Below are positions 2,118 to 47,015 of a stretch of 64,000 bases of DNA, piece by piece. The notes under the pieces are model-generated. The model was not told where the DNA came from. It did not search any database and worked only from the letters and a program-made list of their open reading frames with translations. A program made the position numbers and the translations under genes. Position 1 is the first letter of the stretch. Every line of letters starts with the position of its first letter. Origin of the DNA: an uncultured Caldisericales bacterium (GTDB taxonomy: Bacteria > Caldisericota > Caldisericia > Caldisericales > Caldisericaceae); assembly GCA_964630915.1 (NCBI GenBank), contig CAZVYK010000001.1, forward strand, positions 915,050 through 979,049. Direction: 5' to 3'.

Positions 2118-3521
2118 ATGACCAGAACAAAGACAGCGATTGTAAGTACGTTGATCAGAGTCGTACTTGTCTTTGTGCTCTTTGTTGCTCTTTTCTTGCC
2201 TGTAACTGTTATTCCTCAACAAAGATCATTAGAGCCATCTTACATCAAGATTGATTTTGATGATGACGTAAGTCAACTTGTGCCAGCGGGTGTTTTAGTA
2301 AGAAAGAGTAATAATAGTGTTGCTCGCGCTGCATCTGAGATTGTCAAACCGGTTGTTGGAACACTCAAGCCACTGGTCTTTCTTGTAGACTTTCCCGATT
2401 TGAGAGCAAACCATACAATTTCAGCTCCTGAATTCTATCAGGAACTGCTTTTCAAAGAGGGCAACAGAAGCCTGCATGATTTTTACCTTGAGAACTCTTA
2501 TGGAAAGCTTGAAGTCAAAGGTAGCGTATTTGGAAAGTGGGTTACGGCTCCTATGAATTACGTTTATTATGAAGGCAACTACAGGGGAATGGGCTTCTAT
2601 CCGAACAACACACAGAGGCTTGTAGAGGATATCATAAAGATAGTGGATCGAGAGATTGACTTCTCGCAGTATGATGGAAACAGTGACGGACTTGTAGATG
2701 GCTTATTCGTAATCTACGCAGGTCAGAGGGCTGATACAAAGAACCCTGGTAGGATTTACCCGCATCAGTGGAGTATAAGTCCCGTGAAGAAAGATGGAGT
2801 AGTCATTTCCTCGTATACTGTCATTCCTGAATACAGAAGCGTGCCTGGAGATACTACAATCGGAGTCTTCTGCCACGAATTTGGCCACATTATTGGGGCG
2901 GTTGATATGTACGACCTAGACGGGCTTGTTTACCAGAGTTATGACGGAAAAAGGTCTTACGGTCTTGGGAAGTGGAGCGTGATGGCATATGGTACATATG
3001 GTACAACTAAACTTTTCGGAGATACACCTTCTCATTTTGACGCGTGGCACAAGATTAAGCTTGGATGGCTAGAGCCCGTTGTGATCAAAGAATCAGTGAG
3101 CAACATCGAATTAAAAGCAGTTGGGAGAAAAGACGGAACAGTCTTGAAAATTGTCAATCCCGAAAATCCTTGCGAATACTTCCTCATTGAATACAGGAAG
3201 AAGAGCGGTTTTAACAGCTCGATTCCTGGCGAGGGAATTCTCATCTATCACATTGATGAGAGAATGGACTCAAATAATTATGCATGGACGCCTGGCACTA
3301 ATTCCGACAAGCACTATCTGGTTTCAGTTGTCCAGGCGGATGGCAAGTGGGACCTCGAGAATTGCATGAATCTTGGGGACAAAGGAGATGTTTACTACTC
3401 GAGCGCATCTTTTGAGATTTCGAATATCCAATACTACGGCGCCAAACAATCGGCTTTCACTATTAAGAATGTTGAAGTTGAGGAAGGCTTTGTAAAGCTT
3501 GATTTAGTAATGCAAAATTAA
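2118..3521 (+). CDS. Secreted M6-family (immune inhibitor A-like) zinc metalloprotease
   Basis: N-terminal TM/signal segment. HEFGHIIGAVDMYD zinc-binding motif (HEXXH..D) characteristic of peptidase M6. Strong RBS GGGAGAGGG before the ATG. Confidence 0.7.
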   Translation: MTRTKTAIVSTLIRVVLVFVLFVALFLPVTVIPQQRSLEPSYIKIDFDDDVSQLVPAGVLVRKSNNSVARAASEIVKPVVGTLKPLVFLVDFPDLRANHTISAPEFYQELLFKEGNRSLHDFYLENSYGKLEVKGSVFGKWVTAPMNYVYYEGNYRGMGFYPNNTQRLVEDIIKIVDREIDFSQYDGNSDGLVDGLFVIYAGQRADTKNPGRIYPHQWSISPVKKDGVVISSYTVIPEYRSVPGDTTIGVFCHEFGHIIGAVDMYDLDGLVYQSYDGKRSYGLGKWSVMAYGTYGTTKLFGDTPSHFDAWHKIKLGWLEPVVIKESVSNIELKAVGRKDGTVLKIVNPENPCEYFLIEYRKKSGFNSSIPGEGILIYHIDERMDSNNYAWTPGTNSDKHYLVSVVQADGKWDLENCMNLGDKGDVYYSSASFEISNIQYYGAKQSAFTIKNVEVEEGFVKLDLVMQN

Positions 3522-40364: not shown

Positions 40365-40739
40365 TTAATCAAGTAATTCTTCCACATTTGCTAGCTTCCC
40401 CTCTATGAAGAGTTTCAGCGCTTTATCAACATCCGTTTCCTCTGTAACATAAACATCAATTCCTGCATTTTTCAAGTCATCGTATAACCTTCTTCCCATT
40501 CCATGGGAAATGACAACTTTTACGTCTTTAAGTGCAGCTATTATTGCTGAGTGGCTATCATAGTGGTGAGTGCCTTCTTCGTGCATCCCTCTTGCGTGCC
40601 CCGTAAAGGTATTCGGCAAGTACTCTCTGTTTTTTATTTCGTTTCCATCAACATCATAGATTACAAAACTTCTTGTTCTTCCAAAATGCGAAGAAACAAT
40701 TTTGCCATCATCAGATGCAATTGCAATTTTCATTTTCAA
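40365..40739 (-). CDS. Dinitrogenase FeMo-cofactor-binding-domain protein (NifX/NifB-C-like, pfam02579)
   Basis: MKIAIASDDGKIVSSHFGRTRSFVIYDVDG start typical of NifX/NafY-like proteins. Confidence 0.75.
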   Translation of the reverse strand: MKMKIAIASDDGKIVSSHFGRTRSFVIYDVDGNEIKNREYLPNTFTGHARGMHEEGTHHYDSHSAIIAALKDVKVVISHGMGRRLYDDLKNAGIDVYVTEETDVDKALKLFIEGKLANVEELLD

Positions 40740-41011: not shown

Positions 41012-42058
41012 TTATCTAAAAATGAAATTCCCAAAGAACCACCCGGTAGCTGTCCCGAGAATAATGATTGAAACCACATATACAATTGCTTTTTTGACTC
41101 CAAATACTTTTGCTATTGCCAGCCAGTTAGGTAAACTCAAACCAGGGCCAGTAAGCAGAAGAGCAAGCGCTGGACCCTTACCCATTCCCAGTTTCATGAG
41201 AGTGTCCACAAATGGAGCCTCTGTCATTGTGGCGAAGTAGCTTATTGCTCCTATCATGGTTGCGAGAAATGATGCTCTGATTCCGTTTCCACCAAGCCAG
41301 CTTTTGATCCACTCCTCAGGTAATACTTTCCCTATTACGCCAACAGTAAAAACTCCAAAAAGAAGAAGCGGGAAAATGGTTTTAACAAACCACCACGTTT
41401 CCCTTAACCACTCCTTTATCTTTGGCTTTGGCAACACTTTTATCGCATAGAAGCTCACAACAATCGCGCAGAAAGCCCAAATCAACACTTTGTAAAGGTA
41501 TTTGCCGTTTCTCATAACATAGTTGGGCAGCAAAAGAGACGCAAGTATTAGTACCACAAGGACAATACCTTTGCTTTCAAAAATGTTCTGCTGATTAGTT
41601 TTTTCCTGTCTAGTGAATTCCTCTCTATTCTCTCTAAACACAAAACTCATTATTCCACCGACAAGAAAAGCAATAAAAAGAGCAGCAATTACTCTCCAAA
41701 GAACCATTTCCCCGCCAAGAATGCTTCCAGTGTAAGTCAACGCAAGCACGTTGGCGGCAGGTGCAACCCATAGTATAATGAAAGCCACTCCAATTGAGGC
41801 TCCGGTGTAATAGAGCCCACTGGCAACTGGAATGACCGTACATGAGCATGCTGCCAGCAGAAAACTCGACACAGAAGCAAGAGAAAATGACTTCATCCTG
41901 TTTGATTTCTCTCCGAGGAACTCCAAAATTACCTCGCGGTTAACAAAGGTGACCATTGCCCCGGCAAGTAGAAAAGCTGGGACAAGGCATGTCAGAACGT
42001 GTGTAGCAAGATAACCCTTTAGCGCAAGCAAGCCAGCCACTAATAAGTCCAATAACAT
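41012..42058 (-). CDS. Predicted permease (pfam03773 / DUF318, YraQ/ArsP-related)
   Basis: ~10 TM helices. Conserved CSCTVIPVASGL and LLTGPGLSLPNW regions. Confidence 0.75.
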   Translation of the reverse strand: MLLDLLVAGLLALKGYLATHVLTCLVPAFLLAGAMVTFVNREVILEFLGEKSNRMKSFSLASVSSFLLAACSCTVIPVASGLYYTGASIGVAFIILWVAPAANVLALTYTGSILGGEMVLWRVIAALFIAFLVGGIMSFVFRENREEFTRQEKTNQQNIFESKGIVLVVLILASLLLPNYVMRNGKYLYKVLIWAFCAIVVSFYAIKVLPKPKIKEWLRETWWFVKTIFPLLLFGVFTVGVIGKVLPEEWIKSWLGGNGIRASFLATMIGAISYFATMTEAPFVDTLMKLGMGKGPALALLLTGPGLSLPNWLAIAKVFGVKKAIVYVVSIIILGTATGWFFGNFIFR

Positions 42059-42106: not shown

Positions 42107-42493
42107 TTATACTTTTACATCTCTATTCCCTTTTCCCCTGGCAAATTCAATGAATTTTTTAACTGATTTAAAGTTATTTTCAATGGACTTAATAACCTCT
42201 TCTCTTATCTTTCTGCCCTCAGGAGTTAGACTGTAAACTCTTTTTGGTGGTCCACTTTCCGTTTCCCACCTGGACTGAATGTAACCTTCGGTTTCAAGAA
42301 TTCTCAGTATTTTGTAGCCTCTCCCCATCTGCGATGGGTCACCACACGGGCACATGTCAGGGAAAAGCTGTTCAAAGGTATTCATTATTTCGTATCCGTG
42401 GAGTTCTCCTCTTTCAAGAAGAACAAGTACCCAGGCTTTAAGCCAGAACCCGGGAGAGAATGGGTTTTTGAATTTAGGACATTCGTTTTTCAT
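42107..42493 (-). CDS. PadR-family transcriptional regulator with Cys-containing insertion
   Basis: LHGYEIMNTF ... YKILRILETEGYIQSRW ... VYSLTPEG wHTH. CPCGDPS insertion between helices. Confidence 0.75.
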   Translation of the reverse strand: MKNECPKFKNPFSPGFWLKAWVLVLLERGELHGYEIMNTFEQLFPDMCPCGDPSQMGRGYKILRILETEGYIQSRWETESGPPKRVYSLTPEGRKIREEVIKSIENNFKSVKKFIEFARGKGNRDVKV

Positions 42494-42921: not shown

Positions 42922-43731
42922 CTATCCCAACGCTACGTCAAGAAACATCATTATGGCAAAGCCAATCAGTGCACCTATTGTGGAAAGGTCCGTTTCTTTG
43001 CCCTGCTGGGATTCGGGAATAAGCTCTTCGACAACGACATATATCATGGCACCAGCCGCGAATGCTAACGCGTATGGAAGAATGTTTTTAACGTGTGCAA
43101 CAAGATAAGCACCAAGAATGCCTCCTATGACTTCAACCAGACCTGAAAGCTGCCCCAATGTGAAACTTTTTCCTATTGAAATGCCTTCTCTTCGAAGCGG
43201 GATTGATATCGCTGCACCCTCGGGGAAGTTCTGGAGTCCTATACCAACTGTAAGAGCGATGGCTGAGCCGAGAGTTGAAATCGATGGAGAATTTGCAAGA
43301 GTCCCGAAGCTTACTCCAACAGCAAAGCCCTCGGGTATGTTGTGAAGCGTCACGGCAAGCACGAGCAGAATACTTCTCTGGAGGGATGTTTTCACTCCCT
43401 CTGCCTTTTCAATCTCGAGTCCGAGGTGGAGGTGCGGGAGAACCTTGTCAACAAGGTACAGGAAACCGCCGCCAAGCGAAAAGCCAAATACCGCGGGAAG
43501 CCAGGGAGCCATTCCTATCTGTGAAGCCATTTTGATTGATGGCTCAAGGAGCGACCAGAAGCTTGCAGCTATCATCACTCCTGAAGCAAATCCGAGCATT
43601 GCGTTCAAGATTCTTATGTTTATCTGTTTAAAGAAGAAGACCATCGCTGACCCTAGAGCTGTCACGCCCCAGGTGAAGAGGGTTCCAAAAGATGCCAGTA
43701 GTACAGGGTTTAGCTTTAGTAGAGAGTTCAT
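42922..43731 (-). CDS. ZIP-family metal (Zn/Fe) transporter, ZupT-like
   Basis: 8 TM helices, HNIPEG and LHN..EGFAVG motifs. ATGA overlap with the upstream ABC ATPase. Confidence 0.8.
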   Translation of the reverse strand: MNSLLKLNPVLLASFGTLFTWGVTALGSAMVFFFKQINIRILNAMLGFASGVMIAASFWSLLEPSIKMASQIGMAPWLPAVFGFSLGGGFLYLVDKVLPHLHLGLEIEKAEGVKTSLQRSILLVLAVTLHNIPEGFAVGVSFGTLANSPSISTLGSAIALTVGIGLQNFPEGAAISIPLRREGISIGKSFTLGQLSGLVEVIGGILGAYLVAHVKNILPYALAFAAGAMIYVVVEELIPESQQGKETDLSTIGALIGFAIMMFLDVALG

Positions 43732-44477
43732 CTTACTTCATTATACGGGTTTCCGCTTATGATATATTCAAGTGCTTGCTCAGAGAGCGTTGCGAACTTC
43801 TTGCTTGAAAGAGTTGAGAGGCTTCTCGGGTGAGGAAAGTTAATTTCAATGGTCTTGCATATTGTGCCCGGATATCCCTGGATGATAACGACGATATCAG
43901 AAAGAAAGAGCGCCTCCTCAATATCGTGCGTCACCATAATTGTTGAAAGGTTCCACTTTTCTCGCGTTGCCTCAAGGTAGAGCCAGAGCTTTCTTCTATT
44001 GAGAGCATCAACTGCACCAAACGGTTCATCAAGAAGCAGGAGTTGAGTGTCTGTAAGGAGTGTCCTGAGAAGCGCGGCTCTCTGGTACATTCCTCCCGAA
44101 AGGACGGAAGGAAACCTGTCTTCAAATCCTTTAAGGCCAAACTCCTGTAGAAGTCTCGAAACTCTTTTTTTTGCTTCATTTTCGGGCACTCCTCTTATGA
44201 GAAGAGGGATTTCAAGGTTTTTAAGGACGGTAAACCACGGAAGGAGCACTCCCTTCTGCGGCATATATCCTGTTGCTCCCTGTGGGCGAGTTATAGTTCC
44301 CTCGTAAGGGATAAGCCCTGCAATTGCCTTGAGCAAGGTTGTTTTCCCGGAGCCGGAAGGTCCTGCAATGGCAAGATGTTTGCCGTAAGGGAGGGTAAAA
44401 GAGATGTCCCTTACGGCAAGGAAACCCTCATAATAAACATTTACGTTTTTTATCTCTATCTCTTTTATTTCCTGCAT
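43728..44477 (-). CDS. ABC transporter ATP-binding protein (NitT/TauT family; ThiZ-like)
   Basis: GPSGSGKTT, LSGGMYQRAAL, LLLDEPFGAVD. Confidence 0.85.
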   Translation of the reverse strand: MQEIKEIEIKNVNVYYEGFLAVRDISFTLPYGKHLAIAGPSGSGKTTLLKAIAGLIPYEGTITRPQGATGYMPQKGVLLPWFTVLKNLEIPLLIRGVPENEAKKRVSRLLQEFGLKGFEDRFPSVLSGGMYQRAALLRTLLTDTQLLLLDEPFGAVDALNRRKLWLYLEATREKWNLSTIMVTHDIEEALFLSDIVVIIQGYPGTICKTIEINFPHPRSLSTLSSKKFATLSEQALEYIISGNPYNEVR

Positions 44478-45457
44478 GGTATAAACTCGTTCGTGTAGAG
44501 GGTTTTTATGTTCTCGGGTTTTGATTTAAGAAGTCCTGCCTGGAACATGAAATCGGTGAAAGTATTCCACACTTCGTCCTTCATAATGCCAAAGCAATTT
44601 GCGTCACTTATATACTCTTTACTTATCCACGCCTGTGACTTTTCGACAAGTTCTCTGTTAAGCTCCGGAGCATACTTCAAGAGTATATTAGCTGCCTCTT
44701 CCGGATGTGCCGCTGCATAAGTGTATCCTTCCGAGATTGCCTCAGTGAAAGCCATAACAACCTCCGGTTTATCTTTCACCATCGTTGTGTTCGTTATGAA
44801 AAGGGGAGTGTAGTGATCAAACTGAGGGTAGTAATCTGCAATTCTATAGAAAGCGGAATCTAATCCTCTTATTTCTGAATCAATTCCTTCCCACGCGTAA
44901 TAGATCCAGGTGAAATCGTAAAGCTTATTTACAAGTCCCGTTATCTGGTCAAAAACGCCCAGCTGCACCATTTTGAGGTTATCTGGATTCTTCCCGTGGT
45001 CTTTCATAATGAACCTGACGATTGCGTTTTCCCACTCCGTGCCCCATCCTCCGTACGTCTTTCCCTCGAAGTCATCGGGTGATTTTATGCTGCTTTCCTT
45101 AAGCCATATAAAGCCCGAAGTGTCATGCTGGAGAATCGCGGAAATTGCAATTAAAGGTGCTGCTTCGTTAATGACATACTGGGTGAGTGCTTCCTGGAAG
45201 GAAATTCCAAAATCTGCCTTTCCAGCGCTTACTGCCTGTTCTGGCCAGACTTCTGCCGGTTGTACGATCTCCACCTCGAGATTCCTTTCCTCGAAATAGC
45301 CCTTCTCAAGCGCAACGTAAATTCCTGTGTGGTTTGTATTTGGCGTCCAGTCGAGCATGAGAGTTACCTTTGTAGGTTTCTCTAGGTGGGCTTGCTTTCT
45401 ACACCCCGCTGTCAGGACAATAGCCAGAACGAGGAAAATCAAAAGAACTTTTTTCAT
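44465..45457 (-). CDS. ABC substrate-binding lipoprotein, NMT1/THI5-like (ThiY-like)
   Basis: Lipobox LTAGC. NMT1/THI5 fold region, ~330 aa. Confidence 0.75.
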   Translation of the reverse strand: MKKVLLIFLVLAIVLTAGCRKQAHLEKPTKVTLMLDWTPNTNHTGIYVALEKGYFEERNLEVEIVQPAEVWPEQAVSAGKADFGISFQEALTQYVINEAAPLIAISAILQHDTSGFIWLKESSIKSPDDFEGKTYGGWGTEWENAIVRFIMKDHGKNPDNLKMVQLGVFDQITGLVNKLYDFTWIYYAWEGIDSEIRGLDSAFYRIADYYPQFDHYTPLFITNTTMVKDKPEVVMAFTEAISEGYTYAAAHPEEAANILLKYAPELNRELVEKSQAWISKEYISDANCFGIMKDEVWNTFTDFMFQAGLLKSKPENIKTLYTNEFIPCRK

Positions 45458-46281
45458 TACTTACCACCTCCCTGCCATTTTGTCATTTTACTTTTCACAA
45501 GGAGAGTCATTCCCCAGGTTGCAAGGCTGAAAATTATGACTATAAGGGTTCCCGCAAATACCTGAGGTAGCTGAAATGAAGAGAAAGACCTCTTGATATA
45601 AAGGCCCATTCCCTCACTTGTGCCCATCCACTCCGCGGTTAGTGCTCCAAGTACGGCGTATGGAGAGGTAATTTCTATGCCCGTGAGCGTATAGGAAAGA
45701 GTATGCGGCAAGATAACATATCGCATGATCTGCAACCTCTTTGCACCCATTGCCTTCATTACGTCTACCATATCCCTGTCGACGGTTCTCAAGCCAAGAA
45801 GAGTGTTCACGGTTATAGGAAAAAATGTTGCCCACACGACGACTCCAATTTTGGGACCCGCCCCGAATCCGAACCATAGGATGATGAGAGGGGCTATTGC
45901 TATGGCAGGAGTTGACTGCGAGACTACAAGGATAGGATAGATGAGGTCCTCAACTGGTTTTATTAGGTGCATGATAGCCGCAAAGAGCACTCCCACAACG
46001 ATTGAAAGAGTGAAACCAAGATAGGTTACGCTCAGCGTTGAAGACAAATGCCTGAGAATAACCGACCTCTGCTCTACTAGTATCCAGAATACATTGTCAG
46101 GTGACGGAAGGATGTAGCTCTGAACTAGTCTCAGGTGGCTTGTCGCAAGATACCATGCGAGGATGAAAATGACAAAGGAAAGAATCTTCAGGATGAAGGG
46201 CCTGTTTCTCAGAAGGTATGCAGTAGATATTACGAAAAGAGCAAATCCTGTAATGGATGGCAAATGCGTTCTGAGGAGCAT
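45457..46281 (-). CDS. ABC permease (NitT/TauT family; ThiX-like)
   Basis: Track ORF runs to 46437 but would overlap the riboswitch aptamer. GGGAG-7 nt-ATG (MLLRTHLPS) at 46281 sits just after the riboswitch terminator. Start could also be a TTG further upstream. Confidence 0.7.
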   Translation of the reverse strand: MLLRTHLPSITGFALFVISTAYLLRNRPFILKILSFVIFILAWYLATSHLRLVQSYILPSPDNVFWILVEQRSVILRHLSSTLSVTYLGFTLSIVVGVLFAAIMHLIKPVEDLIYPILVVSQSTPAIAIAPLIILWFGFGAGPKIGVVVWATFFPITVNTLLGLRTVDRDMVDVMKAMGAKRLQIMRYVILPHTLSYTLTGIEITSPYAVLGALTAEWMGTSEGMGLYIKRSFSSFQLPQVFAGTLIVIIFSLATWGMTLLVKSKMTKWQGGGK

Positions 46282-46334
46282 CAGGTACACTCCCAGAAAG
46301 AGCACGAAAAGCACAAAAAGCACAGAGTTCTTTC

Positions 46335-46475
46335 TCAAAACAAAAACCTCCCTAAATCGGGGAGGGTACAGGGTTCTATCCGAGTACCATCTCCCTACGC
46401 CGGTATTACCCGGGTCAGGTTCCAGGGGTCGGACCATGAGGTCCCTCTCAGCCGCACGACTCCCCCGTGGTTACT
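46335..46475 (-). promoter_or_regulatory. TPP (THI-box) riboswitch with intrinsic-terminator expression platform
   Basis: Minus-strand RNA CCACGGGGGAGUCGUGCGGCUGAGAGGGACC..GACCCCUGGAACCUGACCCGGGUAAUACCGGCGUAGGGAG matches the THI-element consensus (GGGG.GC..GCUGAGA..ACCC..GAACCUGAUCUGGAUAAUGCCAGCGUAGGGA). Followed by CCUCCC-CGAUUUA-GGGAGG + U-run. Confidence 0.85.
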
Positions 46476-46490
46476 TATATTATAAGAAAT

Positions 46491-47015
46491 TCAGCGTAAT
46501 AATGAACTTGCTCTATGCAAAGCAGCAGTCTCCCTTGCATGCGAGTAGTTAAGTGTCCTGTAAACAAGCATTGAAAGGAAGAAGTTTGCAATTATCTGGT
46601 TTCTCAGGAACGGGATCCCTGCAATGATACACTGAATGTATCCTGCAAGAGTCCTCGGGTAAAAGGCGAATGTAAAGAAAACAAGCGAATTTGTGACAGC
46701 AAAAAATGCCAAAGTCCCAACAAACTCCATGAAAAGTATGTTCTTAAGACTCTTTCCCCTTAGTACGAACTGCACAAGAGATACTGCTGCCCAGCCTGCA
46801 AGAACTATGAAGTCCCAAGCTGTAAGGGAACCAGTGAGGATAAGGTTTGATGAGATTACGACAATCAGGGCAGCGGGAAGTGCAAAGCGGAAACCGTAGG
46901 CAAGCGTTAGAAATGCAATCATGCTCGAGATGAACTCGATGTTTGGAATCTTCAGAGGCACAAACCTCACCGCAAAAGCGACCGCGATAAAGAAAAACGC
47001 AAGAGCTTTCTTCAT
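46491..47015 (-). CDS. Small polytopic membrane protein, possibly an ECF-type S component
   Basis: 5-6 TM helices, 174 aa. No diagnostic motif. Confidence 0.35.
   Translation of the reverse strand: MKKALAFFFIAVAFAVRFVPLKIPNIEFISSMIAFLTLAYGFRFALPAALIVVISSNLILTGSLTAWDFIVLAGWAAVSLVQFVLRGKSLKNILFMEFVGTLAFFAVTNSLVFFTFAFYPRTLAGYIQCIIAGIPFLRNQIIANFFLSMLVYRTLNYSHARETAALHRASSLLR

Follow-up and report, generated by a model that had tools for sequence, protein, structure and literature searches.

A putative TPP riboswitch with a proposed dual-use hairpin at the head of a ThiXYZ-like transporter operon in an uncultured Caldisericales bacterium

The DNA analysed here, which we call the window, is a 64,000-nucleotide stretch from an uncultured Caldisericales bacterium. 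On its minus strand it carries a TPP aptamer, a short leader that appears able to form two mutually exclusive helices, and four downstream genes that abut or overlap one another. These features are, in the order in which they would be transcribed:

46479..46484, minus strand: probable -10 box TATAAT, read from the sequence, at a conserved position
46374..46476, minus strand: TPP riboswitch aptamer (THI element, RF00059), from a full-model Rfam match
46384..46395, minus strand: predicted 5' strand of an antiterminator/anti-sequestor, GGGAG 46395-46391 plus GGUAC 46388-46384, from conserved pairing and folding
46360..46369, minus strand: switching strand GUACC-CUCCC, which can pair with the aptamer 3' end (antiterminator) or with GGGAGG (terminator/sequestor)
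46347..46365, minus strand: predicted terminator/sequestor hairpin, from a pattern scan, conservation and folding energy
46336..46346, minus strand: U-run UUUUUGUUUUG ending in the start codon UUG (46338-46336), from the sequence and a comparison of nine leaders
45457..46338, minus strand: ABC permease (ThiX-like, BPD_transp_1), 293 aa, PF00528
44465..45457, minus strand: NMT1/THI5-like substrate-binding lipoprotein (ThiY-like) with a signal peptide ending LTAGC, PF09084, E 4e-63
43728..44477, minus strand: ABC ATPase (ThiZ-like, NitT/TauT type), PF00005, TauB-like but below the equivalog cut-off
42922..43731, minus strand: ZIP-family (ZupT-like) metal transporter, PF02535 and NF003243

The original prediction placed a TPP riboswitch on the minus strand at this site and named a cmscan search with RF00059 as one of its checks. 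Run against Rfam 15, that search matched RF00059 at 46374-46476 on the minus strand with 74.9 bits (E 6.2e-13), above the gathering score of 54.3 bits, and the match covers model positions 1-105 of 105 without truncation. A home-made covariance model (R1) scores the same RNA at 87 bits. The THI-box hallmarks that had been described in the reverse complement of 46388-46473 are indeed present, and CUGAGA, ACCUGA, GGGUAAUACC and GCGUAGGGAG can be read directly in the sequence. The ligand-contact motifs are complete, with CUGAGA in the pyrimidine-sensor arm and ACCUGA...UAAUACC...GCGUAGGGA in the pyrophosphate-sensor arm, and they are invariant in an alignment of the window aptamer with 10 other Rfam-confirmed aptamers. 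The aptamer ends 35 nt ahead of the permease start codon, on the same strand as the operon for the permease and the NMT1-type binding protein. On every sequence-level criterion, then, the RNA at 46374-46476 can be classed as a plain member of RF00059.

A TATAAT or TACAAT box stands 7-8 nt ahead of P1 in all nine related leaders compared, a set made up of the window and eight others. In the window, the box at 46484-46479 lies 8 nt ahead of P1, and a transcript would begin some 7 nt beyond it, at the base of P1; a search for a good -35 box upstream of the aptamer came up empty, and a sigma-70 scan made no promoter call there. Compared with strain L081, in which the flanking genes are 6-9% diverged, the aptamer differs at 1 of 103 nt, and a 115-nt stretch that takes in the aptamer and the -10 box (46377-46491) has zero mismatches against a strain about 7% diverged, which we would count as a sign of selection on the aptamer and promoter. 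Across 46339-46437 there are two strain differences, at 46376 and 46359, both in RNA loops. The gene on the upstream side, which encodes a DUF6580 membrane protein (46491-47015, minus strand), ends 15 nt short of the aptamer match. The gene order DUF72-DUF6580-riboswitch is shared by L081 and L084 and not by more distant relatives, and the Rfam scan found no riboswitch in the window upstream of the DUF6580 gene.

The three transporter genes named in the original prediction, for a permease, an NMT1/THI5-like binding lipoprotein and a NitT/TauT ATPase, were all found by profile search, and a binding protein of NMT1/THI5 fold together with a NitT/TauT-type permease and ATPase in one operon is the make-up of a ThiXYZ-type transporter. 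The best NCBIfam matches of the permease (SaoP, TauC and SsuC) all fall below their equivalog cut-offs. Residues 1-45 of the permease form an N-terminal extension with two hydrophobic segments that is common to the Caldisericum and 3DAC-like homologues and missing from Clostridium homologues of about 258 aa.

The fourth gene, for the ZIP transporter, was missing from the operon as first described. Its ATG overlaps the stop codon of the ATPase gene by 4 nt (ATGA), and it probably closes the transcript under riboswitch control. The window protein keeps HNxPEG and QNxPEG, which we take to be the ZIP metal-binding site. The next gene, for a PadR regulator, begins a separate transcription unit, as it has its own perfect sigma-70 consensus promoter (TTGACA-16-TATAAT, 42561-42534, minus strand); a terminator scan reported no terminator-like site between the ZIP gene and this promoter. 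The neighbours further downstream are the PadR-family regulator itself (42107-42493), an ArsP_1/SO_0444-like permease (41012-42058) and a NifX-like gene (40365-40739), and together these genes may form a metal-homeostasis unit beside the ZIP gene.

The ZIP gene follows the ATPase gene in the window, in the 94.6% identical strains and in L084 (permease 75% identical; 12-nt gap), and it was not found at this position in the 3DAC-like loci, Caldisericum exile, the other two relatives or 80 genome loci that encode related binding proteins. We considered the gene as a recurrent member of the TPP regulon and rejected this, as 80 metagenomic loci encoding ZIP homologues (61-75% identity) carry no TPP aptamer; nor was a neighbouring binding protein or permease found at those loci. 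The joining of the ZIP gene to the operon is probably lineage-specific and incidental. It seems improbable to us that the gene is truly co-transcribed and TPP-repressed with a functional rather than incidental linkage, but if this were true, divalent-metal uptake would be tied to thiamine status in a Caldisericota-like lineage. In the 3DAC clade (L085, L088 and L089), NifX-like and BioY (biotin transporter) genes follow the ATPase gene instead of ZIP, a clustering of vitamin-uptake genes after the TPP-controlled ABC operon.

The exact binding protein of the window was found on three Logan metagenome contigs, one of which is identical to the window and two of which are about 94.6% identical to it in DNA. 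A block of 1076 nt (44396-45471, minus strand) that coincides with the binding-protein gene has zero mismatches against L081 and L082 where about 75 would be expected, a count affected by ascertainment in that the contigs were found by exact protein identity, although the flanking genes are 6-9% diverged. This suggests either a recent recombination that replaced only the binding-protein gene or a chimeric metagenome assembly. Among the permease homologues, the closest named ones are those of "bacterium 3DAC" and Caldisericum, and homologues of 286-306 aa at 55-75% identity include those of Caldisericum exile and "bacterium 3DAC". The original prediction had suggested that orthologous operons be examined for the same leader: the operons of eight further lineages carry a TPP leader, and in the close-relative leaders scanned the aptamer was confirmed by Rfam in four of four.

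Downstream of the aptamer, the platform appears to be built from two helices that share a strand. The terminator scan reported the hairpin that the original prediction had read as terminator-like, with CCTCCC (46365-46360), a 7-nt loop (46359-46353), GGGAGG (46352-46347) and then TTTTTGTTTT. The hairpin has the make-up of an intrinsic terminator, namely a 6-bp stem with five G-C pairs and a 7-nt loop followed by UUUUUGUUUU. However, this pattern is no rarer in shuffled sequence (1 found versus a mean of 1.4 expected), and the case for the hairpin therefore rests on where it lies and on how well relatives conserve it. In the competing helix, GGGAG and GGUAC at the 3' end of the aptamer pair with GUACC-CUCCC; this includes the GGGAG-CUCCC antiterminator pairing proposed in the original prediction. 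The 5' strand of the antiterminator reaches into P1, on its 3' side, and into the GGGA junction, which is conserved, and a TPP-bound aptamer should therefore exclude it. The P1-coupled antiterminator in turn shares bases with the terminator, and both helices are kept in nine lineages.

The conservation of both helices was assessed in an alignment of the segment from CGUAGGGAG to the start codon in the nine lineages, which include Caldisericum exile and bacterium 3DAC. For the antiterminator, 98.9% of the alignment cells are paired, versus 43-67% when the partner columns are slid, and the pairs vary in a compensatory manner: one occurs as UA, CG or UG and another as AU, GU or GC, with two pairs changed on both sides. 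For the terminator, 100% of cells are paired, versus 37-72% with slid partner columns, and the variation consists of a single CG-to-UA double change. In L091, a base that is altered in the terminator keeps its pairing in the antiterminator, as G-U. The only difference between the window and L081 within the hairpin lies in the loop, at position 46359. The observed covariation score was reached by 16 of 500 shuffle controls for the antiterminator and by 57 of 500 for the terminator; with nine sequences and few independent events, the covariation would be modest support.

Constrained folding of the platform, another check named with the original prediction, is consistent with a switch. In isolation, the antiterminator is the more stable of the two helices (-15.7 kcal/mol, versus -9.4 kcal/mol for the terminator), and the full leader with one or the other helix forced reaches -50.7 versus -49.7 kcal/mol, so that the two states lie 1 kcal/mol apart. 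Such near-equality is the balance that would be expected if ligand binding decides the outcome. The unconstrained minimum free energy fold is a mixture of elements from both states.

How this platform might act depends on where translation of the permease begins, and here the evidence departs from the original prediction in one respect. The six-frame ORF 45457-46437 reads through the aptamer and had been judged over-extended, and this holds. We give practically no credence to the idea that the 326-aa ORF from ATG 46437, which would encode MVRPLEPDPGNTGVGR..., is a real gene with a THI-box likeness inside its coding sequence. It is uninterrupted and begins with ATG, but the Rfam match extends over the full model (E 6e-13), the extra 33 residues occur in no homologue, distant lineages carry the aptamer before orthologous genes but out of frame with the gene, and both of the loop differences between strains in 46339-46437 would be non-synonymous in the ORF frame. 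The 326-aa ORF was rejected as a gene on these four grounds. The original prediction went on to place the real start at ATG 46281, and a reading in which control is exerted on transcription only would build on this start, with the permease translated from ATG 46281 by means of its own GGGAG and the 57 nt after the U-run left untranslated. A GGGAG does stand 8 nt upstream of ATG 46281, ATG is the commoner start codon, and the hairpin and U-run exist. The homologues, however, point to TTG 46338. Fifteen of them (286-306 aa, most of 289-295 aa; 55-95% identity) align over their full length, all reach an N-terminus of the form M-[KR]-[KN] at TTG 46338, and the residue aligned with 46281 is S, T or L and in none of the 15 M. 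In the 3DAC clade, the gene unambiguously starts with an ATG at the aligned position upstream, 4 nt past a GGGGAGG arm; the following Met comes only far inside the protein, and no later candidate precedes the conserved core. An independent Logan gene call of 293 aa likewise corresponds to TTG 46338. No 19-residue stretch of the permease is more hydrophobic than residues 4-22 (NSVLFVLFVLFLGVYLMLL; Kyte-Doolittle score 2.51), and a start at 46281, which is residue 20, would cut this segment. Finally, the window and the 94.6% strain differ at four sites in 46282-46338, and three of these are third codon positions in the frame of TTG 46338; the changes include two synonymous ones and one conservative V-to-A change, a pattern that weakly favours the upstream start. 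TTG 46338 is most likely the start of the permease rather than ATG 46281, to judge from these comparisons, and control of transcription alone is accordingly a reading to which we assign very little probability. ATG 46281 may serve as a second, internal start.

If translation begins at TTG 46338, its Shine-Dalgarno sequence is GGGAGG (46352-46347), 8 nt ahead, which also forms the 3' arm of the hairpin. The hairpin therefore probably blocks translation as well as transcription. In all nine leaders the start codon lies 4-9 nt past a Shine-Dalgarno hairpin arm. The U-run is less uniform: five U directly after the stem, then more U, are present in five of the nine (window, L081, L084, L087 and L090), L091 has only TTT after the hairpin, and in the 3DAC-clade leaders L085, L088 and L089 the U-run is missing and the gene begins with ATG. 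A U-tract that ends in a TTG start is found in six of the nine lineages (window, L081, L084, L087, L090 and L091). Because the Shine-Dalgarno arm is present in all nine leaders and the U-run is absent from the 3DAC clade, sequestration appears to be the shared feature and termination one that was added in the lineage of the window. The same distribution could suggest that control is essentially translational, with the hairpin as a Shine-Dalgarno sequestor and the U-run incidental or weakly terminating, and the short stem of -9.4 kcal/mol fits that view. However, the five leaders that keep five U after the stem, the window among them, have the canonical geometry of an intrinsic terminator, and we consider an essentially translational switch unlikely, albeit deserving of some weight.

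We favour, with high confidence, a TPP-sensing OFF riboswitch of the classical kind that heads a four-gene mRNA and acts on transcription and translation through one hairpin. The sequence analysis itself supports the aptamer, the two exclusive helices and their conservation, the place of the start codon and the set of genes; from these we infer that TPP binds, that it turns expression off and how its effect is divided between transcription and translation at this leader. When TPP is low, the 3' end of the aptamer (GGGAG and the P1 3' strand GGUAC) would pair with GUACC-CUCCC, and this antiterminator would free GGGAGG, allowing RNA polymerase to read through and ribosomes to start at UUG 46338. 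When TPP is high, the bound aptamer would hold GGGA and P1, leaving CCUCCC free to pair with GGGAGG, and the resulting hairpin with its U-run would halt transcription at the start codon or just short of it; on transcripts that are read through, the same hairpin would also bury the Shine-Dalgarno sequence.

The arrangement combines elements of well-studied TPP riboswitches. The Bacillus subtilis tenA and thiC leaders are TPP riboswitches with intrinsic-terminator platforms. As in these terminator-type leaders of Bacillota, the window has the same aptamer class with all conserved elements, and the 3' end of the aptamer would compete for a switching strand, with expression off at high TPP. In contrast to them, the 3' arm of the window hairpin is the Shine-Dalgarno sequence and UUG ends the U-run, and one hairpin can therefore act at both levels. 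In TPP riboswitches of the kind found at Escherichia coli thiM, the form with bound ligand has a helix that masks the Shine-Dalgarno sequence. Leaders of the 3DAC clade (L085, L088 and L089) have exactly such a form, without a U-run, whereas the window version also keeps the terminator-like U-run. Among the nine leaders, the hairpin would serve some lineages both to end transcription and to sequester the Shine-Dalgarno sequence, and a sister clade for sequestration only. Such dual use of a hairpin is already well known, and the window riboswitch adds another example of a very familiar arrangement, one that any Rfam scan would find. Its value lies mainly in annotation: it places the permease start at TTG 46338, corrects the 5' UTR and marks four genes of an uncultured organism as regulated.

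TPP control is not peculiar to this lineage. We collected 80 genome loci, mostly in Bacillota, that encode binding proteins 39-49% identical to that of the window and searched them with a covariance model built on 11 Rfam-confirmed aptamers (the window and 10 distant loci). An upstream TPP aptamer on the same strand was found in 74 of the 80, at 56-102 bits, where the E-values of the home-made model are rough and the bit scores are far above noise; two of the six loci with no match are cut off just upstream of the gene. A strict hand-written regular expression for the THI box, which found the motif in 9 of the 80, was discarded as too strict. With an aptamer at 74 of 80 loci, TPP control would therefore be the rule in this transporter family, as has long been known. 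The published THI-element regulon names ThiXYZ as a candidate thiamine-related transporter (PMC3020362, PMC3766115, PMC5627462).

The nature of the cargo is a separate question. The original prediction equated the operon with ThiXYZ, the thiamine-pyrimidine salvage transporter; the ThiXYZ-type architecture stands, but a pyrimidine is only one candidate for the substrate. In Bacillus halodurans ThiXYZ, the binding protein ThiY (3IX1) binds N-formyl-4-amino-5-aminomethyl-2-methylpyrimidine, and its role has been published (PMC3020362, PMC5627462). That system likewise has an NMT1/THI5-fold binding protein, a NitT/TauT-type permease and ATPase, and a place in the THI-element regulon, whereas the window operon has the permease first, an N-terminal extension on the permease and an appended ZIP gene. 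The binding protein of the window is 30% identical to ThiY 3IX1 (E 1e-25) and 46% identical over 296 residues to Clostridioides difficile 4NMY (E 7.9e-85), its nearest solved relative, and would belong to a sister subfamily of ThiY. PDB entry 4NMY, an ABC substrate-binding protein, was deposited "with thiamin-bound" (PMC10586155); a literature search found no transport data for this protein. Profile searches of 19 window ORFs found no thiamine-salvage enzyme among them. The cargo would be thiamine or its pyrimidine moiety, and it could be thiamine itself. "ThiXYZ-like" is a fair label for the operon, and the closeness of its binding protein to thiamin-bound 4NMY is a caution against copying the label "pyrimidine salvage". 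More broadly, the 4NMY-like "ThiY" clade may import intact thiamine, and if this is true, the equation of ThiXYZ with pyrimidine salvage would be wrong for hundreds of Bacillota operons.

Elsewhere in the window, two c-di-GMP-II aptamers (RF01786; gathering score 53.5 bits) lie in tandem on the plus strand at 1850-1936 and 1963-2049, 27 nt apart, with scores of 54.6 and 63.1 bits. The pair stands directly upstream of ORF 2118-3521, which has a Peptidase_M6 (immune inhibitor A-like) domain.
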